Shown: positions 1-64,000 of the stretch, piece by piece | Numbering within the stretch: the stretch's first letter is position 1 | Layout: every line of letters starts with the position of its first letter | From: Amphiscolops sp. MND2022 | Taxonomy: Eukaryota | Direction: 5' to 3' | Assembly: GCA_964187785.1 (NCBI GenBank) | Contig: OZ076409.1 | Location: forward strand, 7,814,001 to 7,878,000 | DNA: 64,000 nt | The notes under the pieces: model-generated | Seen by the model: only the letters and a program-made list of their open reading frames with translations | Told to the model about the DNA's origin: nothing | Database searches by the model: none | Made by a program: the position numbers and the translations under genes

Positions 1-124
1 CCTCGTTGCTATCAGAATCATTGGCAGAAGACTGAGCCATGTCTGGGTCCGTTTGAACGGGTGTTTCTGATGAGGAACTAATAACTCTTCCGCTTCTGAG
101 TTCGGTGCCTAGATCTGGGTTCAT
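1..124 (-). CDS. gag: 5' end of gag of a second, tandem copy of element 1 (continues off the left edge)
   Basis: 1..124 is identical to 17008..17131, the start of gag ORF 15626..17131; ATG at 124 on the minus strand. Confidence 0.9.
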   Translation of the reverse strand, partial: MNPDLGTELRSGRVISSSSETPVQTDPDMAQSSANDSDSNE

Positions 125-696
125 AGAGGTGAGAGAAAAGGAATTATGAGTGAAGACTGGATTCTGGATGATTTTCGATTTATTTTACTATTTTGTGCCT
201 TTATTCGAACTCAAATTCACTATTTCTGAACTTGAGATGTAAATGCGATGAGTCTTACAGTAAGACAAGGATACTAGTATAGAATGAGAATAGTTAACGA
301 GGATTAAGTAGAGTTCATCCAAATTTCATCGAACAGGTATCAATCAAGAAATTACTCAAGAGTTGTGAAGGTAGCGTTTTTACGATGAATAAGAGATATG
401 TTTTCTAGTTCAAATCTGTCGTAATTCGTCCAACTGGACAGTAGCTAATCGCAATTTCGGTCTGAGTAATCTCTAATGGCGGTCCAAAATACAGCAGTTC
501 ACGTGTCTTTTCAGGCTGGTAAGACGCTAAATCTCTTACCAGCCGACTCTTATTGGCTATTGCCAGTTGGTGCTAATTGGTAAGTCACGTGACCGGTGTT
601 GTGAACTGCCGCAAGTTGGCCAAACCACATGGTACATCTACATATGTTAATTATGACTAATCATCACTTTACAATGTCGCAATTGCCTGCACACAG

Positions 697-2048
697 TGTC
701 ATGGTTTCCATAGCAACTCAAATCATTCAATAATGTACTAATTTCAAGTCAAAACAGAGTAAACTGCATCACAGGATGAGAAAACGATGTTTTTCCAACT
801 AATTCTAGCATTAAAATCAATACTTCAAAAACAAAGATGGAAACGCGATGAATTCGTCAGAATATTCGCTGATTTTCAAGTCTAGTTTAGCTCTGGATGA
901 AAATGCGATGAATGGTGGTCTTTTAGCTCGAAAATCAACACGATATGAACTGACGATGATAAAAGGATGAACTCGTCTTCAAAATGAATGATTTCCAGTA
1001 CAATTTAAATCAACGATGGTAAAAGGATGAACTCTCCTCGAAAATAACTAATTTCCAGCACTAGTGAAATTGACGATGAATTCAGGATGAATTCAGCCAA
1101 TAAAACAGGTGAAACAGCTAATCCTGCAGTGAAGACAAATATACGATGACTTTAGGATGAATACATTCAATAAAACAGCAAAATCTAATGAATGAAATTC
1201 CAACGATGGGTTTAGGATGAACTCAACTGAAAATTCGGTTAATTCTAACGTAAGTCGAACTAGCGATGGATTTACGATGAACTAGTGATGAGTTAATCTA
1301 ATAAAACAGATATCCAGCACTTCACTCTTTTTTAGGATGAATTAAGGATGTACTTTCTCATTTCTTGCATTTTCTGTTCAGGGCGATGGAATATAGATGT
1401 GTTATGCTCTTTTAAGAAATGAGAAGCACATTGAAGGTTAAAAATCACAAAACGACGATGAGTATAAGATGGTTTTCATGCATTTTAAAGTCCCGTGAGA
1501 TCCGCTGATGGATCACTAAATGAAATCAACTAAATGTCCCAAATTTTGTTCACCCGCAATCTTGGCGATGTGATTGCGATGAACCTTGATAACATAGCAC
1601 CGTGATTTCACTAGTAAGTGAAGTTAAAGGATCACTAAGTCCGCTGATGGATTAGTGATGAACTTTTCTGAAAATCGTCACGACTACAAGTCCTGAGGCG
1701 AGGGAGCTAGTAGAAGTTACATATTCCATTATTTCTACATCTCTCGGTCCAGTCTGACCGGAAAACTTCTCTCCCTCATCGTGACAAACCAATATTGAAT
1801 AAGATAGCACATTAAGAGCTATTGGCCAGATCATTTGTGCGGACACCGGAATTAGAGCGCTCAGTATTAAGTAAATATATATAGCTCAAACTCAGGGGGG
1901 ATAGGGATTAAAGTACAAGTAACGTAGGGTTGCTCACAACCATGGCTCTTATTATATGACATCATATTGCCCATATCTAAGTACATAAGACATAATATTT
2001 ACATTACAAATATTTAGTAGATTATATTTCCATCATGCTGGCATGACA
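697..2048 (-). repeat. LTR of element 1 shared by two tandem copies (3' LTR of the right copy, 5' LTR of the left copy); inner boundary tentative
   Basis: Outer boundary is firm: minus strand reads PPT-like CCGGGGAG then TGTCATG at 2048. Inner boundary 697 rests only on a 7-bp inverted repeat (TGTCATG 697-703 / CATGACA 2042-2048); no TGG primer-binding site follows it. TATA-like run at about 1873-1883. Confidence 0.55.
775..1660 (+). repeat. Array of GATG-N7-GATG motifs about 60 bp apart (repeated at 17782-18667)
   Basis: Motif starts at 775, 836, 896, 955, 1015, 1075, 1145, 1205, 1265 (triple), 1336, 1385, 1457, 1567 and 1646; sequence between motifs is diverged. Confidence 0.9.
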
Positions 2049-2062
2049 CTCCCCGGGGCGGG
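2049..2062 (-). other. Short polypurine-tract-like plus-strand primer of element 1
   Basis: Minus strand CCCGCCCCGGGGAG directly precedes the LTR start TGTCA; element 3 has the related CCCGGGGAGTGA before its LTR. Confidence 0.7.
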
Positions 2063-2575
2063 ATTTGGACTGAGAGTGCAGGGGCCAAATGTGCAGAGGA
2101 TGGTTGTCTCGGCGTTGGCTTCGACTGGTCCTTCGTTTGGTTGGGGAGAAAATGGCCTTCGTTAGTTCTGAATTGGCATGTCCTTCGTTTGTTCTGTCCT
2201 GTGAGAGCTTCTCTGAGAAGAGGACCTTCGGTAATCGTCTTTTCTGGCATCATTCCTGGGTGATTTCGGTTAAAATTTTCGACGCGGCAACTCTAATTCT
2301 TGGTCCATCGAATGTCCGTTGATCTGCATTTTATTGGTTGTCATGCTTTTGACGGGAGTTTCGGCTGGTTATTTTCGGTAGAAGCTGATTTCTCGGAGAA
2401 GAGTTTCCCTCCAAAACGCCTACGCTGAGTAAACAATTCGATTAGCTTCCCTGACAAATTGGCAGCGAGTCAGGGATGAATGAACGATGAATTGTTTGCT
2501 CAGCGAGACACTGATGCCGTTTAGCGGAGTGGCTGGCGCCGTTGCTTGTTTACTCGCGATGAAAGGAGATGAATC

Positions 2576-2677
2576 GTTGCCATAGCAACTGTCAAAAGTT
2601 ACTTCCGCTGCTCGACTTTTGAGTGAAAGGAAAGAGATGAATTCGTCGCCATAGCAACTGTTGCTCGATTTGATTGG
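2576..2677 (+). promoter_or_regulatory. Two RFX X-box motifs and a CCAAT box upstream of the antisense cargo gene
   Basis: GTTGCCATAGCAAC 2576-2589, GTCGCCATAGCAAC 2645-2658, ATTGG 2673-2677. The X-box consensus GTNNCCATRGNAAC is established knowledge. Confidence 0.65.
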
Positions 2678-3182
2678 CTGAGACTGAACTTATAAGTGAA
2701 GGAAATTACAACCGGTTGTCAGCGGCATTCTCATCCATAAATCATCCTCCATTCAAGTCGGTTTGAAAATCGCCACGATTTCCTTTGCGCGTTTCCGCTC
2801 AACTTCGTCGGTATTGATCTGAGACTGGCAGCTGTCAACAAATCAAATACTTGAAAAGTTTTTTGTCAAGTCCTAGGAGAGGACGATCCATTTTCAGAGA
2901 AAGCTTGAGTTGGCTGTACTGGGAAGAGAAGTGATGTCAGTATTTGAAATCGGAGTTTTTTCATCGATTTTTCATCTTCTGAATTCAAGTATTTGATTAA
3001 CATGGCATTCAAGCTGCGTCGCGCTCTTTGAAATCTTCTATTGAATTTGTCCTTCCGTAATCATGGTTGATCAGGCCATTTAATTACTGATCAAATTCTC
3101 TGTTCCTGAATTCTTCGATTTCTTTCCTTCTTTCACCTTCTTCCATTCTTTTCAGATTGTTTGTTTTGCAATTCACTTCGAG

Positions 3183-6100
3183 ATGTCAGACATTCATTCA
3201 GTCTACTCCTTACCAGATACCGAGGTCACAGAAAGTAAGTGCACTAGTTTTTCTTTTCTTCACAAACGGGTTAGGGACAACTAGGTACTGAAAATACGTC
3301 TTGCCTTAGCTGACTCAGTCCATTCTGTTGGCATCGTATCTGAGTTGACGACGCTTCAAACTGTGCCGCCGCAAGAGACTCCAATGGCCCAACCAGCTAT
3401 CGCTGAGCCTCAGGTTGACCCTGGTAGTCAGCCAAATCAAGAGTTCAATGTCCCGTATCTTCCGCAGTGTAAGTACTATCCTTCCGGCCTTCAGATCAGT
3501 CTTCGAATCCCTCATGTCTCATCCTTACTTCGTCCAGTAGTTGACTCCTTTTCGTATGGTGTTTCAGACCACTACCCCTGGTATGCTTCCCTAGGTAGCA
3601 TCACCTTCGGGTGGTATGACCGCCACATGCGGGACATGCTGCGGGATAGCATTCAGCAGTACAGTGAGTTTGTCAATTTCCTTTTCACTTCTCTAGGCTA
3701 TCGTCCGAACACTCCGATGTGATTCCGATGTAAACATCTCATCTGCATGTAGTGTCCTTTGCGGTCGATTACCCATGTAATTCACCTTCGAGATGAATTT
3801 AGGATGTGTCATGAACATTCACAGCTCTTCATGACTGACTCGCTGTAAATCCCATTTTTTGAAGATGAGTTTTGGATGTATTCTTCTCCGTTTTTTCTTT
3901 CTTCGCGCGGCGTACGCGCTCTTTCTTCTCTAATCGTCGTCGTCCAGTAACTGTTTTCTTCTTTCAGGCCCCACACCGATTCACGCGCCGAGGCCTCGGC
4001 CCATCACCTGTTCCATTGGAATAGGGACTAGTGATCACCAGGCTGAGAACATTGATGCTAGTACTCAGGGAGGGCCTCCTCAACTTGACTTGTCCTCGTT
4101 CCTTCAGGACTTGTCATTTGGGAGCGTAAGTTCTCCTGTCAGGCAGGCACCAGTGTCTGTACTGTCACCAGTGCTGAGGAGTTCTTTTGCCGCTAGTAGT
4201 CCTCCTCCTGCTCGTATCACTCTCGACGCTGCTGTGAATGCTGTTGTCGATTGCGTGGATGCAGTCATCGATGCCGTTGTCGATACCTCTGATCGAGCAG
4301 TCCAGGCCGTTGTGGAAGTCAGTGAGTCCTCCACCTTCCATGATCCTCCTGTTGAGGAACCTGTCATCGTTGCCTCTTCTTCTGTTCCTACCCTCCCAGT
4401 CAGCGACACTGATACAGTTGGTGATGCTTCCGTGAGTACCGCCGGCGGTGCTGAGACCCTACTTGAAGTCCCTGGTGACTTCTCGTCCGACATCCTTCTG
4501 CCTGCTGAACCTGACCGAGAATCTGCCTCTCCCAGTGCTGCTCTCATGTCGACCGTGGCTTCTCCCATGGGACCCAGTCTACTGGATAGTGATGACGAAC
4601 CAATCGCGTCCCGTCTGCCAGGTTAACTAAACAGCTTTAAACTGGTGAAGTATCTGATCAGTAGATTTTTCATTCATTTCCTTCTTCGCTTTTGCTTTCA
4701 CTAGCATCTTTCACGTTTTCCTTCTTTTCTATCCATTTTTCATCGTTCTTCTGTTTTCACTATATGGTTTTCTGCAGTTTTCCATTTTTCCATCACATTC
4801 TCATCGTCAAAGGTCGTTGAACATTAGTTTTCGCTCTCTAGTCCTTTTAGAATTTTCATCTCTTTTACATCTTTAAAATTTTCTCTTTTCGGTTTTCGCT
4901 ATTTGTCGGTGTTTTCTTTTCAGTTTTCATCTCTTTTTCATCGTTAAGTTGTTTTCGCTCTAAAATATCTCAATTTTGGTTCAAAGTCGTTCTATTTATC
5001 TCTTTTCCATCGTTCAAGTTTTCATTCTTTAAGGTTTCCATTTTTCATCCTGGTGATGTGCAAAATGCATCTCTTTTTCATCTTTTCGTTTTCTTCGTTT
5101 TCCGCTTATATTTCCTGATGAAAATATTATTTTACATCATTTTTTCATCACTCCGGGTGACTTTTTGGAAGTTTGCGGTGGTTTTTTCATTTTTCAGTTT
5201 TGTAAAGATTATTTTAAGATGATCTTGGTATTTTGTGTGAACGTGGTTGTTTTTAGTGGATGTGTTATGTGTTGGCATGTGATTATTTCTGTTTGTAGGG
5301 CGAAAAGTGATCAAGTCATGGTGGTTTTCTCATGAATACTGTGGGCTTGCACTGGGCTATGCACGAAGTCATCAATCGCGGCTATCATTCGTTCGATGTT
5401 TACTGTGCAAGCGTGATATCAATGTTGGCAGTCGTGGTATCACTACTTTCATGGAGCATTGTCGTGGGCTCCGTCACCATCGTTTGGACTGCCTGATTCG
5501 TTTGTTTCGGGATTTACCGTTGCGGCGACGCGATGGGTCATTGATGAGCAATGAAGAGAGTGTGGAGTGTAGGAGCAGCCTGGGCGGTGCAATGGTGCCA
5601 TTCATTGAGACGTGCCCCTCCTTTAGTGTACTGGAGGTGTTTGAGTTGGAAGCAGCTGGACGACCTGTGTGGGGGGACGAGGAGGAAGAGGATCTATTGT
5701 GTGAAAAGACCGTGCATCTGTTCGTGTGCCTGGTTATTGACGCAATCTATCGTGGGTGTCAGTTCGCCAGCGTAACGAGTTTGTGGGAGGTGATGGTTGC
5801 GTCAGAGCCGCAACATGCCTCTCTTTTCGGTGTTACTTGCGAAGTGAATGACGTGATGGTAATTCGTATTTCCTTCTGTTTTTTTTTGTTTCATGAAGGT
5901 TCGTGTAGATGGAAAAAAAATATACATTTAGTGGGTAGTTATCCATAGGTAGTTTTGAAGCTGGTGTAGGGGGGATTTTCAACTATTAATTGTGTCGGGT
6001 TATTTTTAAGCGGATCGTGAATTAATGTATAGTAAAGTTGATGTTTGTTTTTAGAGTGTGGTTCTACTGAGTTTGTGGCCGTACGCGATGAAGAGGCTAA

Positions 6101-7962
6101 TCACTCTGTGGTCTAACTGTGGGTTTACCAGCTTTCATGTGGCTGTTGGGCAGGGGCGCGTGACTGGCACGGTCACAATGTGTTCTCTAGAAGGGATCAG
6201 TCAGTACTGTGTCTTCAGTTTTTGTCTGTCTGAGGATTGGGAAAAACGAGTTGTCACGTGGATGATTAACATGTGGTGTTGTTTGCTTGGAGAACCTGTT
6301 CCACTTGGACTGTGTTGCGATGCGTTGCCTCAGCTGGGTGGACTGTTCCAAGCCGCCACTGGCGTTGGGTCACTGGAGTTGAAGACGCTGTCATTGTGTG
6401 AAATCAGTCGGACAATTGTGGACGTGGGAGGGCGGGCGCTCGGCGGGACTGATATTCACGTGGTGCTGAATCATCTGCAGAAGAGACTGAAAGGATATGT
6501 CAGGGATCCTCTGTTGTTGAGCTGCCCTCATCTGTTGCAGGTCGGTGTAGTCTTCCGCTTTTATTTGAGTGTTACTATGAGTTGTACTCTTTGTCTGTTT
6601 CTGTTGTTTGTATATTGGTAGTTGTTTGTATTGTAATATTTTGTTTTATCTATGTGGAGCTTGTTATGTTTTGTTTAGGCTATTTTATCCGGGGAAGTCT
6701 ACGTGTGGACTCTTGCTGATGTGTGCGATGAATTACGTGCCAATTGGGCAGAAGTGCTGTGTCTAGTTCGATTCGCTTCGGGAGACGGGCCAGTAGATGC
6801 GTTGGATCTTACTTTGAGGGTGGAGTTTGGGATCCCAATCAGGCTCCGAGCACTTAGTATGGTCTATCGTGCTTGTTAGTATGTCGTATACTTACCGGGT
6901 GGGAAGTTTCTGCAGTTGGCTTTACGTATTCGAGTGTTTAATCAATTCGCATTTTTCGGGAAGGGAACGGGGGGGTTAGTCCGATTATTTACTGTGTATA
7001 GAATTGTTGTGTTTTTCATTTCAGTAGTGACGTCGTACGAAAAGAGTTTCGGGTCTTCATCATTGCGGAGTTGTTACTGGGCGATCGAGAGTGCATTGTT
7101 TGTGAAACGCCTGCTGACTCTACTGGTTGATGAAGAGAGCCTGCCCACTGATCTGGATATCCGAGGGTGGTTGTTTGTGGATGTAGACAGTTATGTTGTG
7201 TCAGCGACTAAGTTACAAGCCCTTATCGCGAGTTTCAGCTCAGATGAGAATTTGACGGAAGATGTGGCTGTGTATGAAGAGGATGTGTCCCGAGTGCCTA
7301 ATTTCTTATTGTCTATCGTCAAGAACGTATTATTGCTACCAGGGATTCGTGACGATCTTGCTTTCGTGCGAAGTGTCTTTAGTTCACCCAGACTGGTTTG
7401 TGTGGCGGAAACTGATCTTGTGGCGGAAATTCGCAATTTTACTGGTTTACTTGTGGAAATGGGGCGGATCAGTTTAGTCGAACAGGATCGAATGGAGCTC
7501 GGATTTCTGGAATTCATAAGGGCTTTTCGGTGCGAGCCTAGGCTAGCTGGGGCGACTGCCGAGTATTCAGCCGTTGATCTGTTGCGTTTCTGTTCCAGTC
7601 GCGGGTCGCAGAGTCTGTTACAACTTGTCTTTTGCCTGGGAGGGGTGGTGCAGAGCACTTGCAATACTATATGCGAAGGGATCGGGCACCTGCCGAGCGA
7701 TGTCATGAGCTGTGTATGTGCAGTAATCTCTAGTTATTTGTCTGCTAATCATGTGCGAAGTTACGGTAGTGTCAGTGGGCCACTGATGGAAGAAGTGATG
7801 GAGTCGCACAGAAGGCTCGTCGATCTATCAGAGATTACAGAGGGCATGTTGTGGGACGACGTCGGTATCGTGGCTGGGGAAGATTATCGTCTCCAGTTAT
7901 ATGCTAGTCTTGGTTATGATGTGACCGGGGAGCGGGCTGCCAGTCCCGAGATTGGAAACTGA
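3183..7962 (+). CDS. Seven-exon antisense cargo gene, about 1014 aa: low-complexity N-terminus, BED-like Zn finger, degenerate hAT-transposase-like body
   Basis: Exons 3183-3234, 3310-3468, 3968-4621, 5299-5858, 6055-6540, 6679-6874, 7025-7962. All six introns are GT..AG with matching phases (1,1,1,0,0,1); joined length is 3045 nt with no internal stop. CLLC-x16-H-x5-H at 5397-5480. AATAAA at 8063. Confidence 0.8.
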
Positions 7963-8062
7963 CTTATTAACTGTTTATGTTGTTCATTGTTTTGCTATAT
8001 AATTTGTTGTATTTACATATTAGTGTAGTTATTCATATGTTGGGAGACCCATGAAAAAGGTC

Positions 8063-8068
8063 AATAAA
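8063..8068 (+). terminator. Polyadenylation signal of the antisense cargo gene
   Basis: AATAAA about 100 nt after the TGA at 7960-7962. Confidence 0.55.
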
Positions 8069-10535
8069 TGGAAAGCACAGTGATGACTATAGTGAGAATG
8101 ATACAAATCCAGATGCTACGGCGGAAAGATCGGTAGTAGTGTGTTTACAACATTAGTTATTTTGGTGCCCAACAGCTGTTTTTCTTTTGAGTTGTTAGAG
8201 ATAGTTACAGAGGATATTAAGTACGTGTAAATCAACAAGTTCGTCCAACAGTTCACTTGAAGCATTGTCTTCGGTATTTTTGTATCATAGATCATCGGTC
8301 GGGCGTCGCTTTTATGGTGTTCATCGTTATTACATCTCGTGGTAGTGTGAGTAACTCGTCAGCGTTTGATCTTTGATTTTTCATCGTATTTTCATCACGT
8401 TTTCTTCGGTCGGCCGAGCGACGTCGCGAAAAGTGATTTTTCATCTTTTTTACATCGTTTGTTATATGTGATTCATTGCATGTTTGTTACATGTGATTTT
8501 TCTACATAGTTCATCGTTTTTTCATCTTGCCTTTGAATTTTTGCATTTTTGCTAGCTATTTGGTGTAATTCATCGTTTTTGTATCGCAAGTTTGACTTGA
8601 CAAGTTTTTTGCTCATTTTGCTGTATAGTTCATCTTCTTTTCATCGTGCGTTTGAAATGTACGGATTTTGCGTGTTTTCGATGTTATTTGGGTATAACGT
8701 AAGCGGGGGTTGCATTTTTCATGTCCGGAGGAGGTTTTTATTAATATTGCGGTGTTTCGGATTGTTTTCTTCATGTATTTTAGCGTTATACGGTTATAAC
8801 CGTTTGTCGTGTTTTTGAATTTGCATGAGTTTTATGTTACATGTGTTTTGATCATCGTCGTCATGTTTCTAATTTGTCAACTACGGAACGTTATTGCATG
8901 TATTTTTAGTTCGCTTTCTGGTGACCGCCGCTTGCGTGGCGGTCGAAAATAAGTTCACTCAGCAGTGGTACTGATAGCCTGTAGGCGTGCAAGGTACTAG
9001 TGGCTTCAGTCCAGAGCTGGGTGAGTGGAGCTGCTCCGCTCCTTTCAGATAAATGGAATCTCGTAGTTTCGGGCTATATATAGTCTATATGTCATTTTTT
9101 CGGTTGGTTGTTTGCCATTATTCGTCAAAATGGGTTTGTCCATTTGACGGTCAGGCCGATCAATCAATGTGTTTGACATCTACGGTTATGCATGTGTCCA
9201 GTTTTAGACTATCTGTTTCTTGTATTTGCATGTATGGATTGTTACATGATGTGTTCTTTTAAATGGGTTGCCCCATTATTGACATGTCGTTATATGTTCG
9301 GTGTTAGTTTCATGTTTTTTGATTGTATTTTCGTTCATTTGGACAGGGCTTTGTCGTCACAAAGCCCCTACAAAACTAACTGAGAATCCACTAGCCGCTG
9401 GATAACCAACGCAGCAAGCTTCATCCGAATATGGTTGTGAGCTCCCCGCCTCAACTAACCAGCACTCTTTTCAGAGAAATGCCAGCCAGCACGAAGGAAT
9501 GGTTTTAGCTTTTCGATAGGGGTGTTTTGTATGTTATGATCTGATGTTTACTGAGGGGTGCTCACTCCTTTATTAGTTTTGTAGGTGTTTCGTCAATTCT
9601 TATATTTTGCATGTAAATTAGTAGACTTCATGTATTTTCGTTTGTTTGTTTCATTTTTATTCGTCTAGGTTCGGATGGTTTTGGTGTGAATTGCATATAT
9701 TATCTCGTTCATTTTTGAACGGTACATGTATATTTCCGTGCGTTGCTCATTTGTATTGCATGTAGTTTGGAATTGTTAATTGCTTTCGTGACGTCATTGA
9801 TTTGGCAGGTCTTTGAACTTTACATGTATTGATCATTACATTTTTGTGTCGCATAATTTCGTTGCATGATTCGAAATAAGGTCGGTTGTTTTTTATCGTT
9901 TCGTGGAGTTACATGTTGTTTGCGAATTAGCTGATTTATTGTGATGTTATGTTGATGGTGTTTCCCATCACAAAGAGGTGTTGGTAAGTCATTTAATATT
10001 TTCGAATTTCCATTTAGACTAAATTCATCGTTTTGACATCCTCCAGCGAAGCTAGAGTATTGTGTCAGGTTAACGATAAATTCGGTCACGATTTGATGGT
10101 AGTGTCCATCACAAATTCATCTCGTTAATTGATTTCGTGTAATTTATGAATAATTGGATCGAGTTCATCGCTATTTCATCCTCTAGCCGAGCTAGAGTCT
10201 TATGATAGTATGAACGTGATTGCGTTCGCATTCTGATGGTATTTTCCATCTCAAATGCATCGTTAGTAAATATTGCATGTTGATTGGTCGAATTTTTGAC
10301 TGAGTTCATCACCTTTTCATCTCAAATTTTGTGTGTTGTTTTTCCTGGGTTTTTGATCATGTTTCATCCATTTTACATCTCGTTTTGTTTGTATGCGGTT
10401 TTCATGTGATTTTTAGTGACTTTTCATCCATTTTACATCTTCATGTACTTTTTAAGTTCACATTGCATGTAATTCATTCGTTATGTGATTTGTTCATCCG
10501 TAATACATCTCAGATTTAAAATGAGACTTTCTTGG

Positions 10536-13500
10536 CTAAATCGTTACGTCTATTTTGTTGGTCTTTCTCAGTGCGTTTCTAGCTGAAGTAATCTCATGAA
10601 TGAGGAAGTCTGGATACGTTTTCGGTGTAGGGTTCTCACGTAACCTGTACCTACTTTGATTTGATCTAGACGGTCTAGGACTCATCCTTTCTTCATCTTC
10701 ATTTTGCGTGTTTGTCTGTTGTGACTGGTTTTCGTGTTGTTCGTCTCTCAGAGGTACTCTTATCCTACTTTCATCGCGGGGAGGCGGTAGAATAATTTCT
10801 TCTCGCGTTCCAAATCTAACTGTAGGTGGTCTAAAGTTGTTGTGATCAGTTTCTACTTGGTGATAGTCTATTCTCGTGGTTATTTCTGGTGGAATTACTT
10901 GTGGAGTGTGTTGTTCTTGTACCCGAGGAATTGTTTCTTCTGAAGGCTCTTCTTCGACCAAGTCTTGATCTAGATTGTCATTCTCATTCTGATCTACTTC
11001 GTCGGTCGTCGGAATATTCGAGTCGAAAATGTCCGTGTCTTCAACCCTTTCGGTATCTGGGTAGAGATGTTTGGACACGTTGATGTCGTCAATCGGAAAT
11101 TCCGGTTTGAACAATCTCAGTCGCATGCGATGTACGCACTGAGTTTGGTGTGTGCCTACTTTGCGGATGATGTAGTTGCTATCGGATAGCACTTTAATCA
11201 CCTTGTACGGTCCTTTCCAATGGAAAGTTTTAAACTCTTCTTTGCTTCTCTGAGAGTCGTACTTAGGGTCTAGTAGGAACACAAATTCATTCACCTTCAG
11301 TGGCTGTGCTCGTGCTTTTCTATCATAGTACGTTTTGTACTTGTGATAGGCGGAAATGATGTTATCTAGATTGTCTCTGAAGATAAAATTCATTTTGTCT
11401 AGAATTTCGTTCACGTCCTTGCACTTTGTTTCAGCCGGTTTGTTTGCGTTTCGGAATTGCAGATCTAGTGAGTTGTATGGTGTTCTTCCGTGGAAAATTT
11501 CAGTTGGTGAACATTTCAGTGAATCATGATACGTTGTGTTATGGGCCATGATTGCTATGTCGACATAGCGGTCCCATTGTGGTCTGTCTGCGTTTACGCT
11601 AATCTTAAGGATCTTTTTCAGTTTCGCGTGCGTTCTCTCCACCATGCCTATTGTCTGCGCGTGCTTTATCGTGGCATGGGAGATGTGAATATCAGCCGCT
11701 TTCGCGATTTCAGACAGAAGTTCCGCCGTGAACGCCGTGCCTTTGTCGGTCAGAATGTGTTTGGGCACATACGCGTGTTTTGTGAAGATCGACAGTAGTC
11801 CTCTGACTACGGAATGTGTGTCAGGTCTCTTCAGCGGAACGGCGAACAGGTAGCGCGAAAAAACGTCAACAGCCGTCAGAATGTGTGTAAAACCGTTCGA
11901 TGCCGGGAGTGGACCAACGATGTCTATTTCCAGCAGGTCTTCTGGTCCGTCGCACGGGTCGTAGATTTTTTGTAACGGTGGACGTAGTTGCGTTTCTTTT
12001 ACACTTTTAGACTTCATGCAGTTTTCACATCCGTCAAGGACTTTTTGAACTTTACAGGCTAAGTTAGGAGAGTAATATCTTTTACGAAGTTCATACAACA
12101 TTTTCTTTAAACCAGGGTGTCCTTGTACCGGGCTGTTATGTAGAGTCCTAATTATTTTCAAAATACAGTCTTCAGGAACGACTAACTGCTTATGAGACTC
12201 TAGTCCCGTGTGATCAAAAAACTGTCTGTACAGGACACCGTTTACAACTTGTAGGCGTTTTCGATTTTTGTACAACTTTTGAAAAAACTGGTCTTGCATG
12301 TTAACTGGGTGTTGCAAAATTTCAGTACCTTCTAAAAATCTAATCATTTTTTGGATAACCCAGTTATTTTTCTGGACCTGAATTAGATCGATCCCCTCGG
12401 CGGGGCTAACCTGACTCATTACCGGGTGTGATAATGATACTTTACGGATGAATTGCGAGAGTTGAATCGGCTCGTCCACGTCTGTGAGACGGTACGTCAG
12501 ATGGTTGTCAGTCGCGAAGTCATCTGAGGCCGCTGTTCTCTCACAGTTGGTGAACTTCATCCCTTTCCCATCGTCATGAGCCACGTCAGTGCCAGTTGCC
12601 AATTTCATCTCTTTGACATCCTTCTGGCGTTTGCATCTGAGTGGTTCGCTCGCGGGGAAGTAATCAGGCTCGTCTTCCTCCTGTTTTGGTGTACGGGAGG
12701 CGATGTCGATCTCGATCCTGTGAATTGGAATAGTATCAGTCAATTTTAAATGTACACGGTCTTCAGGTCTAATCTCAAGCCGAGATAAGTAATCCGCTGC
12801 GGGATTTTCAACTCCTGGAACATGTGCTAATAGAAAATTGAACTGAAGGGTTTGGTCGCAAAAATTCCAAAGTGAAGGCGGGATATGCTTCGCCTGGAAA
12901 AATCTAGTTAAGGCCTTATTGTCAGTCATAACAATGATGGGTTTTTTCGCACCCCACAAAATGTGGCCAAATTCATCGAAGGCAAAGTGCATAGCTAAAA
13001 ACTCTTTGGCATACATTGTTAGAGACATCTGGCCGCCCTGAAATTTCTTAGAGCCAAATGCAACAGGGGCGTATGTATGTTTGACTGACGGGTCTGCATA
13101 ATCTTCGATTAACAACACATAGCCTGCAGCGTGTTCGCTGGCGTCACACATGATTACCAGTTGTTTATCTGGTAATGGCAGTTTTAGAGACACTTTTGTT
13201 GCTTTTAACAAACTTTCATTAATTTCAAAAATAGCATCTTTATGTTGTTGGTTCAGCTTGAAAGGGACGTCTTTCTTGATGAGTTCCTGTAAACAGCAAG
13301 TTTTATCAGCTAGACGGGGAATGTAAGACCTGTAAAAGTTCACAAAACCAAGATAACGTTGCAACGCTTTCACTGAATTGGGGGGTTTCAACTTCGTTAA
13401 ATAGTCTGTTACGCGTTTTTCAATGGGAGCAATACCAGTGCTAGAAATGGTTTTTCCCAAGTACTCAATTTGTTTTTGTCCAAATTCACATTTACTCATG

Positions 13501-15629
13501 CTAAGTTTAAGACCAGCTTTGTGCAATTGTTGAAAAACAAGTTCAAGGTTGGTAATCAATTCTTCGGGTGAGTGTGCTGCAATTCCAATATCGTCAACAT
13601 ATTGGGCACAGCGGTCCGCTTTGACCAAGGGGTCCAAATACTCACGGATTACTCCTGTAAATGCTGACAAAGAACGATTAAGACCTTGTGCTAGACGTAA
13701 AAATGCAAAAGTTCTAGACCCAAAATTAAACGATAACAGTTGGACAGATTGCTCATCGGCCATTGGAATGCAATGGTAGGCCTGGGAACAATCAAGTTTG
13801 CAGAAGTACTTTTTCCCGGCCATGTGTTGGGCAGCGTCAGCAATTGTTGTTACGGGATGATTGTGCTCACCGTAATCGTTTTTGATCAGGTGGTTTATTC
13901 TTCTCAAGTCAACTAAAATCCTCAATTTACCATTAGGTTTACGCTGAGCAAATATCGGGGAAGAGTATTTGCTGTGAGGCAAAGTAGTTATAATCCCGTA
14001 CTCTTGCATTAGGGCTAATTCCACGAGCAAATCGTCCTTCAAATTTGTCGGAGTCGGGAGACTTTGTGAATAAACAGGTTCTTCATGTTGAGGTGTTAAC
14101 TTAACTTTAAAATCAGTGTTCATGCCAATATCAAAACGGTGTCTAGCAAAAATGGAGTTGTACTTTACCAGCAACTCCTCTACCTGTAACCGTTGAGACG
14201 GAGTAAGAAGCGAGTCGTCCCAGTTGAAGTTCTTCAGGAAGTTCATCCGTTGTTCATCGGATTGGGACGGGTCAAGCTTCTCGAGCTCTCGCAGTGCCAG
14301 AATCTCATCATAAATCCGTCGCTCAATTGCGTTGAGTTTGTCTGGCTCACTGCACGTCTCGGGAGTTGGGTACCACTTGGTTGACTTCATTTCAGGGTTC
14401 ACGAACAGTTGGTTGATCACTGCTTCGGCTTCATCTGGATACTTGGTGATCAAGTTCAAGTGTTCCACTGGCATGGGCGTGATGTTTGCCGCCTGGTGTG
14501 GTGTCGGGATGCGAAAGTGTGCCAGAGTGGTGTTGGCTTCAAGTGTGTACGTGTGGTTGTTTGGGTTGGTGACCTGGATTGTCGTCTTGCCCTCGTCTAG
14601 GTCAACCAAAGCTGGAGAAACAAGCAGACACGTCTTTCGCATGAATCCAGGTGAGCCCTCAACTGTACCAGTTGTAAGTGAGATGTCCGCGTCACTGTGG
14701 ACCTGTATCATCACTTGATGGAGAGGAGGGATCACTGTTCTAGTACTGGAACACAAATCAATTAAACCAGTTTTGAATCTGTTGTTCTTTTGCTGTCTAA
14801 CTTGCATGGACATCATGTGATTAGGGAAGTGGACAAGGTGGTTTTTGATGTCTAAGTTGACTGAGTACTTTTCAAAAAAGGACATTCCAATTAAAATTGT
14901 TCCCATTGTTGGCAGGATTAGGAACGTTTCTTCGAATACTTTTCCAGCAACGTAAAATCTAAGTAAGACTTGCTTACGCACTGGGACTAAGTTCCCGTTT
15001 GCTATTTGAATTTTGAAATTCGGAGGGGGGAATTCTTGAAGGATGGCTTCTGGATGAGCCGTTGTTATTTTTCGTAGTTCGGCTTCAGACATTGCACTTT
15101 GTATTGCGCCTGTGTCTAAAAGTGCGCTGTTTTCGTATTTGTCAAACTGAAGAGGGACGTACAGCATTTTATCTTTCTTGTTTAGATGTAAAGTGGGACT
15201 GAGAACGTGAATTTCTGTTTTAATTGCATGTTTTTTAGTTTTTGAAACATTAATACTACTCTGTTTTGCATGTTTTTTAATACTAAGCCGTTTGTCGATT
15301 GTTGAGTGTGAAGTCGAGTCGTCGTCTAGATGGTGGGTTTCCATCTCTTTGGCATCTTCCACCTGCCTCATGGTGTTTGGTTGCCAGTTCATCGTTTGTT
15401 CATCGTTGATTTCAGCGAGTGGAGAAAAGCGGCTGCCGTTGAGTTGACTTGCATTTCTCATCGCTTTTTCATCGTTGGAAAGTCTTCGCTGATAGACGTC
15501 GTCAGCTTTTGGTCGTTTGTCCAATGAAGGCTGCCATTTCTTCATTGGACGGTCGTGTGTAGTTGGTTGAGTCGAAAGTCGTTGGTCGCGCGTTGTGTTT
15601 CTAGCGGGTGGAAATCGTGGCGGAATCAA
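10536..15629 (-). CDS. pol: Gypsy pol polyprotein (protease, RT, RNase H, integrase), expressed by -1 frameshift
   Basis: LLDTGA protease; QYVDDI RT; MCDASE RNase H; H-x6-H...CENC and EIDIVG/LTDKG/MVERTH integrase motifs; 1697 codons open. Confidence 0.96.
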   Translation of the reverse strand: MIPPRFPPARNTTRDQRLSTQPTTHDRPMKKWQPSLDKRPKADDVYQRRLSNDEKAMRNASQLNGSRFSPLAEINDEQTMNWQPNTMRQVEDAKEMETHHLDDDSTSHSTIDKRLSIKKHAKQSSINVSKTKKHAIKTEIHVLSPTLHLNKKDKMLYVPLQFDKYENSALLDTGAIQSAMSEAELRKITTAHPEAILQEFPPPNFKIQIANGNLVPVRKQVLLRFYVAGKVFEETFLILPTMGTILIGMSFFEKYSVNLDIKNHLVHFPNHMMSMQVRQQKNNRFKTGLIDLCSSTRTVIPPLHQVMIQVHSDADISLTTGTVEGSPGFMRKTCLLVSPALVDLDEGKTTIQVTNPNNHTYTLEANTTLAHFRIPTPHQAANITPMPVEHLNLITKYPDEAEAVINQLFVNPEMKSTKWYPTPETCSEPDKLNAIERRIYDEILALRELEKLDPSQSDEQRMNFLKNFNWDDSLLTPSQRLQVEELLVKYNSIFARHRFDIGMNTDFKVKLTPQHEEPVYSQSLPTPTNLKDDLLVELALMQEYGIITTLPHSKYSSPIFAQRKPNGKLRILVDLRRINHLIKNDYGEHNHPVTTIADAAQHMAGKKYFCKLDCSQAYHCIPMADEQSVQLLSFNFGSRTFAFLRLAQGLNRSLSAFTGVIREYLDPLVKADRCAQYVDDIGIAAHSPEELITNLELVFQQLHKAGLKLSMSKCEFGQKQIEYLGKTISSTGIAPIEKRVTDYLTKLKPPNSVKALQRYLGFVNFYRSYIPRLADKTCCLQELIKKDVPFKLNQQHKDAIFEINESLLKATKVSLKLPLPDKQLVIMCDASEHAAGYVLLIEDYADPSVKHTYAPVAFGSKKFQGGQMSLTMYAKEFLAMHFAFDEFGHILWGAKKPIIVMTDNKALTRFFQAKHIPPSLWNFCDQTLQFNFLLAHVPGVENPAADYLSRLEIRPEDRVHLKLTDTIPIHRIEIDIASRTPKQEEDEPDYFPASEPLRCKRQKDVKEMKLATGTDVAHDDGKGMKFTNCERTAASDDFATDNHLTYRLTDVDEPIQLSQFIRKVSLSHPVMSQVSPAEGIDLIQVQKNNWVIQKMIRFLEGTEILQHPVNMQDQFFQKLYKNRKRLQVVNGVLYRQFFDHTGLESHKQLVVPEDCILKIIRTLHNSPVQGHPGLKKMLYELRKRYYSPNLACKVQKVLDGCENCMKSKSVKETQLRPPLQKIYDPCDGPEDLLEIDIVGPLPASNGFTHILTAVDVFSRYLFAVPLKRPDTHSVVRGLLSIFTKHAYVPKHILTDKGTAFTAELLSEIAKAADIHISHATIKHAQTIGMVERTHAKLKKILKISVNADRPQWDRYVDIAIMAHNTTYHDSLKCSPTEIFHGRTPYNSLDLQFRNANKPAETKCKDVNEILDKMNFIFRDNLDNIISAYHKYKTYYDRKARAQPLKVNEFVFLLDPKYDSQRSKEEFKTFHWKGPYKVIKVLSDSNYIIRKVGTHQTQCVHRMRLRLFKPEFPIDDINVSKHLYPDTERVEDTDIFDSNIPTTDEVDQNENDNLDQDLVEEEPSEETIPRVQEQHTPQVIPPEITTRIDYHQVETDHNNFRPPTVRFGTREEIILPPPRDESRIRVPLRDEQHENQSQQTNTQNEDEERMSPRPSRSNQSRYRLRENPTPKTYPDFLIHEITSARNALRKTNKIDVTI

Positions 15630-17131
15630 AAACCCTGATTTATGTCTTCATCAGAGTAGGTTTCTTGGTCTTCTTCTTCGGTGACTGCTTGCATAGGATT
15701 CATCGGCTTTTGTTGTCGTTTTAAGTCTTGTCTTCTAGTTCTGTTGTCATCTTGTGAATTCGTTGCGTATGGAATCTTTCCATATGCAGAACTGCTTTCT
15801 TTAGGGACACGTCGTCTGCAATCCCTTGCTGAGTGGCCTGTGTAACCGCAAATCTGGCAGACCAATTTTGGATTGTATTTCGGCTTATCTGGATCGGCTG
15901 CTTTCTTCATCGGGATTGCATCCTCCTTCTTTATGCCGTTCGCTTCGTCTCGTTGTCGGGCGCGACATTCCGTTTTGCGGTGACCTGTTTTTCCGCAGTA
16001 GAAACATTGTCCCTCAAATCGTTTTCGTTCTGTCGGTTGTGCGGTCGTCGTTGTTGTTGTAGGCTTCGTCGTTGTAATCGTAGGCGGTGCTGAGGAGGTG
16101 ACCGCGTTGAATGGTTGGATTGCCGTAGGTGGCGCGACGTACTGCTGGTACTGGTATTTTCGCATTAGGTAGGTTTTGATTTCCTCTGGGGAGCTCTCTT
16201 CTTTGTTTGCCATGGTGAGCTCTTGTTGAATCTCGACTGGCAGTTTTCCAAACAGGAACATTTTGATTATTCTGTCGGCCTCATTGCCGAAGGCTTGTTT
16301 GGCAGTCTTCTTGAGATTTTTGAGGAAATCGCCGAATGTTTCTGTTGTGGGATCATAGCGTGCTTGATCCCATTTGTAACGGGCCACTTCCTTTAGATCC
16401 TCTTTTGCAAATTCTTTTCTGAAGAGGTCGAGTACGTCCTTTAGTGTTGTCATTGGCGTTATCTGGATGGATTGCCAGTATTCTATTGCGTCATCTCTCA
16501 AAAGGCTTTGAAAGAAGTGTAGTTTGTTCTCCTCGGTGATTTTGTTGGCAAGCGGGCTAAGGTGGTTGAGGAGAAGGTGCTCAAATTCGACGAATTTGTC
16601 TTTTTGGCCTCTGAAATTTGGCACGTGTGTCTGCAGAAGCTTCGTGTTGGTGGTTGTGTTTTTGATCCGTTGGGGGATCGTCTCGATTGCATTGAGTAGT
16701 CGTTCCTCATTGCTTCTGGGGGTTGATTCTCCTTCGTCTGAATCGTCTTCTTGGTAACTTCTGAAGTTGGTGAAGCTGGTTGTCGGGCGGTTGGAGCGGG
16801 TTTCTGTAGCTCCTGTCACCATGTCGAGCCCTACTGTGTGGGTCGGCTTTGAAGGACCTTTCGAGGTTGACTGTCGGTTTTCGGTGTCTGTCTTACTTAT
16901 GACAGCCATCATTAAGTCCTTCAGTTGACTGAACTCATTCTGTAGTTCGTTTATCTTTCTCTCATAACTCTCTTTTATTTCAGATAACTGAGACGAGATA
17001 TCGGAAACCTCGTTGCTATCAGAATCATTGGCAGAAGACTGAGCCATGTCTGGGTCCGTTTGAACGGGTGTTTCTGATGAGGAACTAATAACTCTTCCGC
17101 TTCTGAGTTCGGTGCCTAGATCTGGGTTCAT
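15626..17131 (-). CDS. gag: Gypsy gag
   Basis: 501 aa; coiled-coil N-terminus; CFYCGKTGHRKTEC and CQICGYTGHSARDC zinc knuckles. Confidence 0.95.
   Translation of the reverse strand: MNPDLGTELRSGRVISSSSETPVQTDPDMAQSSANDSDSNEVSDISSQLSEIKESYERKINELQNEFSQLKDLMMAVISKTDTENRQSTSKGPSKPTHTVGLDMVTGATETRSNRPTTSFTNFRSYQEDDSDEGESTPRSNEERLLNAIETIPQRIKNTTTNTKLLQTHVPNFRGQKDKFVEFEHLLLNHLSPLANKITEENKLHFFQSLLRDDAIEYWQSIQITPMTTLKDVLDLFRKEFAKEDLKEVARYKWDQARYDPTTETFGDFLKNLKKTAKQAFGNEADRIIKMFLFGKLPVEIQQELTMANKEESSPEEIKTYLMRKYQYQQYVAPPTAIQPFNAVTSSAPPTITTTKPTTTTTTAQPTERKRFEGQCFYCGKTGHRKTECRARQRDEANGIKKEDAIPMKKAADPDKPKYNPKLVCQICGYTGHSARDCRRRVPKESSSAYGKIPYATNSQDDNRTRRQDLKRQQKPMNPMQAVTEEEDQETYSDEDINQGF
15629..15635 (-). 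other. -1 ribosomal frameshift slippery heptamer G GGU UUU
   Basis: gag reads CAG GGT TTT TGA; a -1 slip enters the pol frame (TTG ATT CCG...). Confidence 0.85.
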
Positions 17132-17703
17132 AGAGGTGAGAGAAAAGGAATTATGAGTGAAGACTGGATTCTGGATGATTTTCGATTTATTTTACTATTT
17201 TGTGCCTTTATTCGAACTCAAATTCACTATTTCTGAACTTGAGATGTAAATGCGATGAGTCTTACAGTAAGACAAGGATACTAGTATAGAATGAGAATAG
17301 TTAACGAGGATTAAGTAGAGTTCATCCAAATTTCATCGAACAGGTATCAATCAAGAAATTACTCAAGAGTTGTGAAGGTAGCGTTTTTACGATGAATAAG
17401 AGATATGTTTTCTAGTTCAAATCTGTCGTAATTCGTCCAACTGGACAGTAGCTAATCGCAATTTCGGTCTGAGTAATCTCTAATGGCGGTCCAAAATACA
17501 GCAGTTCACGTGTCTTTTCAGGCTGGTAAGACGCTAAATCTCTTACCAGCCGACTCTTATTGGCTATTGCCAGTTGGTGCTAATTGGTAAGTCACGTGAC
17601 CGGTGTTGTGAACTGCCGCAAGTTGGCCAAACCACATGGTACATCTACATATGTTAATTATGACTAATCATCACTTTACAATGTCGCAATTGCCTGCACA
17701 CAG

Positions 17704-19055
17704 TGTCATGGTTTCCATAGCAACTCAAATCATTCAATAATGTACTAATTTCAAGTCAAAACAGAGTAAACTGCATCACAGGATGAGAAAACGATGTTTT
17801 TCCAACTAATTCTAGCATTAAAATCAATACTTCAAAAACAAAGATGGAAACGCGATGAATTCGTCAGAATATTCGCTGATTTTCAAGTCTAGTTTAGCTC
17901 TGGATGAAAATGCGATGAATGGTGGTCTTTTAGCTCGAAAATCAACACGATATGAACTGACGATGATAAAAGGATGAACTCGTCTTCAAAATGAATGATT
18001 TCCAGTACAATTTAAATCAACGATGGTAAAAGGATGAACTCTCCTCGAAAATAACTAATTTCCAGCACTAGTGAAATTGACGATGAATTCAGGATGAATT
18101 CAGCCAATAAAACAGGTGAAACAGCTAATCCTGCAGTGAAGACAAATATACGATGACTTTAGGATGAATACATTCAATAAAACAGCAAAATCTAATGAAT
18201 GAAATTCCAACGATGGGTTTAGGATGAACTCAACTGAAAATTCGGTTAATTCTAACGTAAGTCGAACTAGCGATGGATTTACGATGAACTAGTGATGAGT
18301 TAATCTAATAAAACAGATATCCAGCACTTCACTCTTTTTTAGGATGAATTAAGGATGTACTTTCTCATTTCTTGCATTTTCTGTTCAGGGCGATGGAATA
18401 TAGATGTGTTATGCTCTTTTAAGAAATGAGAAGCACATTGAAGGTTAAAAATCACAAAACGACGATGAGTATAAGATGGTTTTCATGCATTTTAAAGTCC
18501 CGTGAGATCCGCTGATGGATCACTAAATGAAATCAACTAAATGTCCCAAATTTTGTTCACCCGCAATCTTGGCGATGTGATTGCGATGAACCTTGATAAC
18601 ATAGCACCGTGATTTCACTAGTAAGTGAAGTTAAAGGATCACTAAGTCCGCTGATGGATTAGTGATGAACTTTTCTGAAAATCGTCACGACTACAAGTCC
18701 TGAGGCGAGGGAGCTAGTAGAAGTTACATATTCCATTATTTCTACATCTCTCGGTCCAGTCTGACCGGAAAACTTCTCTCCCTCATCGTGACAAACCAAT
18801 ATTGAATAAGATAGCACATTAAGAGCTATTGGCCAGATCATTTGTGCGGACACCGGAATTAGAGCGCTCAGTATTAAGTAAATATATATAGCTCAAACTC
18901 AGGGGGGATAGGGATTAAAGTACAAGTAACGTAGGGTTGCTCACAACCATGGCTCTTATTATATGACATCATATTGCCCATATCTAAGTACATAAGACAT
19001 AATATTTACATTACAAATATTTAGTAGATTATATTTCCATCATGCTGGCATGACA
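17704..19055 (-). repeat. 5' LTR of element 1 (inner boundary tentative)
   Basis: Identical to 697..2048; unrelated flank begins at 19056. Confidence 0.6.
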
Positions 19056-19630
19056 ATGGGAAATAACAAGATAATGTCTAAAAGAGTTGACAGCCCTTTC
19101 ACCAGAAAGACTTCAACTCACTGAAGTACACGGAACACAACAAATTAATATAGCGTTTGTTATTGTTGATGTTCAATTTGGAGAGCTGTGTGGAAATAAC
19201 CTAAAAACACAATTATTAGATCCTACTCAAGTGAGTAGCAAAATAGAAACTTGTCGTCAGATTTTCTAAGAATGGAACAAAGAGAGGGTTTGGAGAATGA
19301 GGCTTGAAAAAAACGACGAATTCGAAGCCTTATTGAGGGAAATGAGATCAAACAAAAGAGCATCAACAACAAAAAAATCGTTATCGTAAGCAAATGGCAA
19401 GCATATTGTTGAACCTTTGGGATTACAAATTAAACAGTCTCGGAATTCACGCATCAGAAAACGAAAATAGATTTTCTCTAAAAAAGGAAATTTCTCGAAG
19501 AAACGAAATAAAAACGAAAATTCATTTTCTCTCCGTTCTTCGGAAATGAACGAACATAGACATATGTAAAATCAAAGACAGAGTCAACTAGATCCAGACG
19601 ATACTATAATAGTAAATGACTGCGCGGAAG
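19056..19630 (+). pseudogene. Possible decayed gag-like fragment of another retroelement
   Basis: Broken frames give a coiled-coil-like peptide (LEKNDEFEALLREMRSNKRAST) resembling Gypsy gag N-termini; weak evidence. Confidence 0.3.
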
Positions 19631-20396
19631 AGAATCATCAGACATACTAAGATTTGTACACTGAAACTTCAGTTCGAAGAAAGTGCTGCCAAAGAGACTG
19701 TTTCACTGCTTTTTCTAGTGCTCATTTTTTTGTCATTTGCCGATCGCTCGGAACTGTTTCTCCAAAGGGTCAGGATAAATACGCATATTCATTTTGGCCT
19801 GGCAATTGAAACATTCCAGAGCCTACGCAATTGTTCGACATCTAAAAAGATTTTGTGAATTCACCATTGGTTGCTCGCCAGTTACCGGTAATTTCATTTT
19901 TCCTGATTTTGTGATTCAAATTTTTCGCTATTTCTGGATCCCATCCGTTTCCATCTCTGTTGGCGTTCTGCTAAATCAAACACTTATTATTCTTTTTTTT
20001 CTTATCGCTACTTTTTGGAAAGATTTTTCTGTTACGATGTTCTCTCAATCAAATTGTTCACGGAAGCATATGAGAACATTTCACACTATGTTGCTCTTCT
20101 GAAAGGTCAAGATATCCATGATTATCAGCCTGTGCGTTCGGCCAATTGTTACAAATCTGCACAGGCGAAAGAAACAAATGTACTGTATAATAGGCCGGGA
20201 ACGGCCCGAGTCGGCGCCGGATCTAAGGCTCAAAAATAGCAAAAGGACTTCAAATTATTGTCATATCCGAGCTCGAAAACGGTACATCCAATCTTCGAAA
20301 ACGATACATCCGAACTTTGAAAACGTTATATCCGAACTGTGAAAACGTTATATCTAAACTTTGAAAACGTTATTTTTGGAAAAAGTCGCATAGTAC

Positions 20397-20808
20397 TGTG
20401 ATGCCATGATGCATGTCCTCAAAGATTCTACAAATCTGAAATACTCTGAACTCTTAACCAAAGTAATTAGTAAATGTAATCTCATTTGAAAGCTAATTAT
20501 TCTAGAAGAAACTTCACTTAATATATCCTGTAACAAGCTTCTTAGATTCATCCTGTTGCTGTCACATTGTTAATTGATGAAACCTACCCTAGTTAATAGA
20601 ATATATCTACTCGGAGAAATTGAGAATTCATCCTGATGATCGGTCTTCTCTCCAGCACTTCAAGAACTGAGATCTCAGAAATAGATTGTACTTAGAACTA
20701 GCTAGCTATAAGGTAAAAGTAAGACGACCCCGCTGTTAAAATCTTAGACTTCTTATGTCTGTAATAAAACATCTAAAAGAAACAACCACCACTCTTTTTA
20801 ACAGCTCA
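20397..20808 (+). repeat. 5' LTR of element 2
   Basis: TGTGATGCC...ACAGCTCA; contains TATAA and AATAAA; 5 substitutions seen versus the 3' LTR. Confidence 0.95.
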
Positions 20809-20810
20809 AT

Positions 20811-20822
20811 TGGTGCGACCAA
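20811..20822 (+). other. Primer-binding site of element 2
   Basis: TGGTGCGACC 2 nt after the LTR end; priming tRNA not determined. Confidence 0.7.
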
Positions 20823-20965
20823 GAAAATTCTTCTTTCTCTCCCATTCATTTCACAACTCTACAATTGTTGTACACCTTTTCTCGACTTTCTCATCCGATA
20901 TCTCTTTGTTCGACACACAGTTTCTCCACCTCTCAATATAGCCTACCGTTATTAACTTCAACGTT

Positions 20966-21224
20966 GCAACCAATTTCCACTAGAAATTGATACGTGTTGC
21001 TATGGTTCTGACTACGTCTCCTCACGTAATTCCTGTCAGTTATATTTCTTGGTTCTGACTACGTTCCTCAACGTAATTCCTGTCAGTCATATTTCTTGGT
21101 TCTGACTACGTTTATTCGCGTATTCCTGTCAGTAAAAATTTTTCGTTCCAACCACCTCTGAGTGAATTCGTGTTGGCTTTATCTCTTTCTTCCGTTCCAA
21201 CCGCAGACGTGCGATACGTGTTGG
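20966..21224 (+). repeat. Six about 47-nt hairpin units with covarying stems in the leader of element 2
   Basis: Outer stems GCAAC/GTTGC, CTGAC/GTCAG (x3), CCAAC/GTTGG (x2); variable inner stems; conserved 3' bulge AT(T/A)C(C/G)T. Confidence 0.75.
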
Positions 21225-29725: not shown

Positions 29726-29789
29726 AACTTCGTCATTCTACCCTCTGGCTCACTCAAAACTAGTCACTACAGCTGAATGAAAAATAACC

Positions 29790-63995: not shown

Positions 63996-64000
63996 TACAC

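Follow-up and report, generated by a model that had tools for sequence, protein, structure and literature searches.

A short paired motif, GATG-N7-GATG, recurs throughout an intact Ty3/Gypsy LTR retrotransposon in the 64-kb stretch of DNA analysed here (the window), and it is very probably under selection for binding by a protein. Antisense to gag and pol, the same element carries a predicted eight-exon gene, and the product of this gene is probably the binder. We propose that the protein recognizes the motif and keeps the family active; taken in full, this activating or anti-silencing model has a probability of roughly 0.5. A sequence-only reading had described the motif as an array at 775-1660. 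The array is real, but that description was partial, since the array is one cluster, situated in the LTR, of an element-wide motif: 69 of the 70 matches in the window lie inside 1-19055.

The motif and its host element

The array occupies positions 775-1660 on the plus strand and contains 15 exact matches at 14 places, one of them a triple GATG at 1265/1276, in agreement with the fourteen sites in about 880 bp counted previously. Of 30 plus-strand GATGs in 760-1680, 29 are part of an N7 pair. The successive spacings are 61, 60, 59, 60, 60, 70, 60, 60, (11), 60, 49, 72, 110 and 79 bp; they are mostly 60-70 bp, as had been claimed, and 12 of 13 fall within 1 bp of a multiple of 10. The 70 matches in the whole window compare with a mean of 1.77 and a maximum of 5 in 100 dinucleotide shuffles, a background that agrees with the earlier estimate of about 0.5 chance matches per 17 kb. 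The sequence between the sites has diverged, again as described. Flank identity among the 14 array units is about 0.30, against about 0.27-0.28 after shuffling, and shows no significant excess once the two units that stem from a recent 60-bp duplication are omitted (0.283 against 0.275, p=0.13). TRF detects only a 60-bp tandem remnant at 951-1079, and in the alignment of the units the 60-bp repeat is not uniformly conserved. A second, exact copy of the array is found at 17782-18667.

The array-bearing element is an intact Ty3/Gypsy LTR retrotransposon encoded on the minus strand. Its gag ORF (15626-17191) contains two zinc knuckles and overlaps pol in a different frame, and the pol ORF (10536-15647; 1,703 open codons) encodes protease, RT, RNase H and integrase. 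The Pfam order of gag followed by protease-RT-RNase H-integrase, together with two TG-starting LTRs and a PPT inside of the 3' LTR, is that of a Ty3/Gypsy element. Positions 1-2048 and 17008-19055 are 100% identical. The former is the 3' LTR, which starts with TGTCA at 2048 of the minus strand, is probably cut by the window start and is abutted by a purine-rich, PPT-like tract (2049-2075, minus strand). The latter belongs to a candidate 5' LTR of 2,234 bp (16822-19055, minus strand), which holds the second array copy and has a TGTC start, a GACA end and a PBS-like TGG at 16821. From these signals, 16822 is the likeliest inner LTR end and gives an LTR of 2.2 kb. With an alternative inner end at 17704, the window would start in a tandem second copy; the extension of the repeat identity into gag is in favour of this arrangement, but it is simpler to assume a 2.2-kb LTR in which the gag ORF begins. 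Under either choice the array falls on the U3 side of the LTR, at 388-1,273 bp from the outer LTR start. The identical LTRs indicate a recent insertion.

Among looked-up homologues, nearly all of which are from ENA, members number 1,482 in the Pol cluster and 380 in the gag cluster, fragments included. Searches of 1-20000 gave no Rfam matches and no tRNA genes. The gag ORF has its start within the candidate LTR and continues across the PBS-like sequence (17131-16821), and two AATAAA sequences are located just upstream, at 17212 and 17191.

One unit of the element (2049-19055, 17,007 bp) contains 52 GATG-N7-GATG sites, and each of the other 30 spacer lengths between 0 and 30 gives 0-3 matches. 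The remaining 45 kb of the window contains a single site. When all gapped 4-mer pairs are scanned without bias, GATG-N7-GATG ranks first, with 52 occurrences against 1.5 expected, and the same type of scan finds no comparable pair in the two other Gypsy elements of the window. The fuller form of the motif is RNGATGNNWWWNNGATGAA, with GATG-N7-GATG as its core: a purine occupies position -2 in 47/52 sites, the two central spacer positions are A/T in 48/52 and 50/52, and the two positions after the second GATG are A in 38/52 and 40/52.

The sites are distributed over several compartments. Of the 52, 17 fall in 17132-19055 and 14 between the accessory gene and pol; pol has 8 and the introns of the accessory gene also 8, a further 3 are located upstream of this gene, and gag and an accessory exon have one each. 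Three sites lie in intron 3 (3664-3967, plus strand; spacings of 76 and 72 bp, unphased) and five in intron 4 (4622-5298, minus strand; two of four spacings phased). One minus-strand cluster at 8322-8645 has five sites spaced by 60, 60, 70 and 119 bp, and another at 10026-10697 has nine. Orientation is the same within a cluster and differs among clusters, which argues for duplex DNA as the form in which the motif is read. When the motif is masked, five clusters share no common alignment longer than 13 bp.

Phasing extends beyond the LTR. Over the whole element, 25/33 spacings are within 1 bp of a multiple of 10, and 13/20 outside the LTR (p=0.001). The mean cosine is 0.69 for a period of 10.0 bp and -0.31 for 10.5 bp, and none of 20,000 jittered sets reaches the best phasing fit. 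In the LTR array the sequence between sites carries a 10-bp WW wave with a peak offset of about 7 mod 10 (0/2000 shuffles), and the opposite-strand 10-kb cluster has the same phase (p=0.0025); the WW phase is not significant in intron 4 or in the 8.3-kb cluster, the two others of four clusters tested. A 10.0-bp period combined with WW phasing hints at wrapped or bent DNA.

The motif clusters are adjoined by X-box-like elements, which we take to be of RFX type, at 704, 2576 and 2645 (and 17711), and flanked by what are presumably CCAAT and E-box-like elements. The region at 2475-2976 contains three motif sites and two of the X-box-like elements, each at equal distance behind a GATGAA half-site, and is a candidate antisense promoter. 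A second enriched motif, T(G/A/T)CATG, has 22 copies between the accessory gene and pol (8477-10470), where it occupies the interval from one of the two GATG clusters to the other with no clear phasing; its TTGCATG form occurs 9 times against 0.7 expected.

Within pol, the 8 sites compare with a mean of 0.63 and a maximum of 4 in 5,000 synonymous shuffles, an approximately 13-fold excess. Seven of them are on the sense strand in a single frame reading D-x-x-x-M, at Pol residues 59, 82, 98, 464, 1010, 1026 and 1651, none of which falls in a Pfam domain; the remaining site is in the protease and on the opposite strand. All motif-compatible peptides in pol use the motif codons (7/7). The D-x-x-x-M peptide is a trace by which relatives can be tested without their DNA. 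For this comparison, 15 listed members were sampled from each of three clusters with 1,482, 153 and 289 members, as peptides only. The trace occurs 49 times in 15,092 aa (3.25 per 1,000 aa) in the element's own Pol cluster and 36 times in 10,018 aa (3.59 per 1,000 aa) in a sister cluster with 91% RT identity, against 0 in 12,711 aa in a cluster with 77% RT identity and 0.23 per 1,000 aa in 113 Pol clusters below 70%. Members of a cluster are not independent, so these data represent three families and not 45 samples. A clear trace is seen in only 2 of 120 Pol clusters. In the sister family the sites at 464 and 1651 are lost and sites at 352 and 1043 are gained; D and M are retained in its sites while the middle residues vary.

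Searches for the DNA of related elements returned none with exon 8 of the accessory gene in metagenomes, with an exon-8 alignment in genomes and viral contigs, or with RT in genomes and viral contigs. Three RT loci in metagenomes at 27-30% identity were set aside. Phased arrays were found at 31 loci in a scan of viral contigs, but a Pol match and a clean excess of N7 only were absent from all of them, and these are regarded as unrelated.

The claim that the array reflects selection for protein binding and is no plain minisatellite agrees well with these observations, namely the conservation of motif and spacing only, the strict spacer, the 10-bp phasing and the codon choice in pol. It is plausible that the binding protein is multimeric.

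A predicted antisense accessory gene

The gene model on the plus strand, antisense to gag and pol, extends over 3183-7962 and comprises eight exons with 1,050 codons plus a stop (exons 1-4: 3183-3234, 3310-3468, 3538-3663, 3968-4621; exons 5-8: 5299-5858, 6055-6540, 6679-6856, 7025-7962). The junctions are predicted and were chosen by eye from a candidate list. All seven introns are GT-AG with matching phases, no exon contains an internal stop, and the homology of exons 5, 7 and 8 begins or stops near the predicted splice sites. The contigs of a single sequencing run cover short pieces, without joints, and weigh neither way. In an RNA-based life cycle, introns survive when the gene that contains them is in antisense orientation. 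Introns of spliceosomal type, together with the Per1-like gene in the vicinity, mark the host as a eukaryote, probably an animal.

The N-terminus of the predicted protein is a low-complexity region rich in S, P and acidic residues. Exon 5 (5299-5858) encodes a BED-like CCHH zinc finger followed by helices, as indicated by Pfam, an alignment and a structural model. Its match to Pfam zf-BED has E=0.0017 and 18.8 bits, below the 20.6 cut-off, and a zf-BED match is found in only 2 of 23 aligned exon-5 members. The finger residues C34, C37, H54 and H60 are at least 90% conserved in 32 aligned sequences. The predicted structure of exon 5 has a pLDDT of 84; Hermes transposase is its top Foldseek match, which is not significant (E=0.83), and the BED structures 2djr and 2ct5 reach only E 3.5 and 5.7. 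The exon-8 prediction has a pLDDT of 36 and is unusable. By eye, exons 5-8 follow what we take to be the order of a degenerate hAT transposase without the full catalytic set. Exons 6 and 8 have no hAT match in Pfam or PDB profile searches, a wide structural search gave no hit with Z of at least 8, and in the ESM Atlas exon 8 obtained only scores below 0.9 and exon 6 none. No longer exon-5 homologue occurs among 1,089 candidates, and no hAT reference was found in four giant-virus bins.

The gene is multicopy. Exon 5 has 72 homologues. Those of exon 8 form 17 clusters with 55-97% identity, and one protein also spans exon 7. The accessory-exon clusters contain 12, 32 and 43 sequences, far fewer than those of gag (380) and Pol (1,482), fragments included. 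As a weak proxy for linkage, the listed members of exons 5, 6 and 8 have 5, 5 and 3 apparent shared source contigs in pairwise comparison; by the same weak proxy, 1 of 15 listed gag members apparently shares a source contig with accessory exons.

Proposed role, rival readings and known systems

In our model, GATG-N7-GATG would be the site of a sequence-specific double-stranded-DNA binding protein, and the retrotransposon family would accumulate sites wherever they are affordable. Two BED-like fingers, contributed by a dimer, would read the two GATG half-sites, one turn apart and on the same face, and adjacent dimers, one every 6-8 turns, would occupy bent or nucleosomal DNA cooperatively, with 10.0 and not 10.5 bp per turn. 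The binder may be a catalytically dead hAT transposase derivative that was captured antisense, and we propose that this mode of capture allowed its introns to outlast reverse transcription. Through binding, LTR and antisense promoter would stay active or escape silencing, the protein would act in trans on gene-less copies, and protein and motif would turn over together between families. A more far-reaching history, which we offer tentatively and would not ourselves favour, is that, in a retrotransposon lineage probably belonging to an animal, a hAT transposase gene captured antisense with its introns lost cutting and became a private transcription or anti-silencing factor, that LTR, introns and Gag-Pol linkers were rewritten as a nucleosome-phased code, and that code and protein were replaced from family to family.

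The presence of the candidate binder in the same element as the motif, as an open and multicopy gene, is in favour of the model. The much smaller size of the accessory-exon clusters relative to those of gag and Pol is against the model in full. In addition, the clear trace in 2 of 120 Pol clusters, set against 17 exon-8 clusters, leaves the idea that gene and motif travel together unsupported.

Alternatively, a hijacked host transcription or chromatin factor could bind the sites while the antisense gene does something else. The presumed X-box-like, CCAAT and E-box-like elements beside the clusters would indicate that host factors are in use, and the excess of gag and Pol over accessory-exon sequences also fits, but we regard this explanation as unlikely given the single site in the other 45 kb, two further Gypsy elements included, and the absence of the trace from the 77% family. 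Sites deep in pol and in introns would also be odd for a simple enhancer.

Doubtful, too, even with its variants taken jointly, is a reading in which the element's own protein binds the motif for an architectural or repressive job, such as organizing the cDNA or pre-integration complex in the way that the BED domains of Hermes act at subterminal repeats, limiting copy number, or positioning nucleosomes in a CENP-B-like manner. The 10.0-bp phasing with WW periodicity fits wrapped DNA, and in Hermes several BED domains engage scattered repeats (PMC10368747). The sites are, however, not concentrated at the tips: the array begins 388 bp inside the LTR, and 35/52 sites are outside 17132-19055.

We consider it quite improbable that gene and motifs are the relic of a nested hAT-like DNA transposon with the sites as its subterminal repeats. 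The BED-like finger would be expected of such a relic, and exon-8 sequences show more diversity than the Pol families that bear the motif. Against this, sites occur in both LTRs, in gag and in pol, with gain and loss between families, and of the 89 inverted pairs in 2049-10600, the 25 longest include none that encloses the gene in the manner of terminal repeats, a comparison that short or decayed repeats may escape.

The chance that the motif acts in the genomic RNA, as an export or packaging signal bound by a Rev- or CERV-like protein, appears slimmer still. In 7963-15647, 20 of 22 sites read GATG on the gag-pol sense strand, and Cer1 does encode a spliced regulator of genomic RNA export (PMC10309623), but 16 of 17 sites in 17132-19055 and all three in intron 3 have the opposite orientation, and helical phasing suits duplex DNA. 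Finally, a decayed minisatellite or compositional accident is largely refuted by the common motif, spacer and phase of unrelated clusters on both strands and by the 13-fold excess of isolated sites in coding sequence, although the 60-bp remnant at 951-1079 and the small excess in flank identity (0.296 against 0.278) indicate that duplication helped to build the LTR array.

Several known systems resemble parts of the activating model. The VANDAL elements of Arabidopsis, which are Mutator-like, share with the present element an element-encoded accessory gene (VANC) and a family-specific short motif, and VANC21 targets are placed in introns, intergenic and terminal non-coding DNA, where the motif is also found here (PMC5735166). 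The enrichment of a family-specific motif in non-coding parts is thus a VANC-like trait, its specificity here being read through the peptide trace only. In contrast to VANDALs, the host element is Ty3/Gypsy and not Mutator-like, and it is therefore not a member of the VANC system. The sites are spaced direct pairs, 10-bp phased and with diverged spacers, and not tandem repeats as described for VANC (PMC5735166). They also enter coding sequence, and the candidate binder has a BED-like finger and no VANC family match. The CpG observed/expected ratio is 0.98 in the element and 1.02 at 38-54 kb; CpG is not depleted, and VANC-style demethylation is without support here.

Spm TnpA also combines dense clusters and family-specific motifs with a transposase-derived regulator, an origin that is only proposed for the protein described here (bioRxiv 10.64898/2026.08.24.746577). 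According to that source, TnpA works on the ends of the DNA-transposon class to which it belongs, whereas in the present case a protein of class II type would be at the service of a class I element; the main text of the preprint does not contain the words 'retrotransposon' or 'LTR'. A Hermes-type hAT BED domain offers a second comparison from DNA transposons. BED domains read a 4-bp core followed by AT-rich DNA and do so cooperatively (PMC10368747), and a BED-type finger, a 4-bp core with an AT-rich flank and multi-site cooperativity, the latter as a proposal, are likewise combined in our model. The Hermes pair is a quasi-palindrome at the transposon tips and serves excision (PMC10368747), in contrast to direct repeats spread over a retroelement.

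Among LTR retrotransposons, plant Retand (Tat) Gypsy elements have a long region between pol and the 3' LTR with antisense ORFs predicted to be DNA-binding, and family-specific repeats to which no function is assigned (PMC11963269). The Retand protein is TRP28, whose origin is not traced, and the repeats are tandem arrays in one region; the abstract and discussion state no pairing of protein and motif (PMC11963269). None of the five accessory ORFs here has a TRP28 match in Pfam. CERV of the C. elegans element Cer1 is a spliced accessory regulator of an animal LTR retrotransposon (PMC10309623), as the predicted splicing would make the present protein. CERV acts on RNA export (PMC10309623), whereas the gene described here is antisense and the evidence favours duplex DNA. 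The capture of piRNA-gene fragments (PMC13534243) is a different strategy.

In literature listings, with supplements and most subscription papers outside the search, we found no account of the motif, nor of an LTR element with an antisense gene of BED or hAT origin. The sequence-specific self-activation or anti-silencing systems in the papers cited here are those of plant DNA transposons (VANC and TnpA), and the Retand ORFs and repeats are not assigned a function. A transposon-encoded regulator with its cognate motif in a retroelement is what we propose as new, and the element provides a concrete candidate pair of protein and motif in an LTR retrotransposon. Taken by themselves, selection on a DNA motif that is strong enough to alter Pol residues and a strict phasing at 10.0 bp are already unusual. 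If correct, the activating model would tie DNA-transposase capture to retroelement regulation, could help to explain how widely the family has spread (380 gag and 1,482 Pol cluster members), and would provide a natural model for factors that read nucleosomal DNA.

Neighbouring sequence in the window

A second Gypsy-like element extends from 20397 to 38150, with 412-bp LTRs that are 98.8% identical and an apparent 4-bp target duplication. Its gag-pol region is divided into several broken ORFs, and it contains one GATG-N7-GATG site. It also has an env-like ORF (31097-33355; Monjiviricetes_fusion, E=8e-22), a further unexplained ORF (34313-35437) and a strong C-over-G skew. A third Gypsy-like pol is located on the minus strand within 54276-64000 and is followed by two long same-sense ORFs of 795 codons (56180-58567) and 655 codons (54276-56243).

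Between these elements, 49700-50397 contains 3.9 copies of a 180-bp tandem repeat (97%) composed of 29-30-bp subunits and flanked by inverted 15-bp repeat tracts (48918-49007 and 50881-50966); the region resembles a derivative of a DNA transposon. A family of short interspersed or inverted repeats with 16- and 22-bp subunits occurs at 20194-20373, 40761-41213, 42176-42272 and 44310-44803. These are probably MITE-like ends, and the env-bearing element adjoins one of them. The only host-type gene identified is an uninterrupted Per1-like (PGAP3-type) ORF at 39767-40534 (Pfam E=2e-34).
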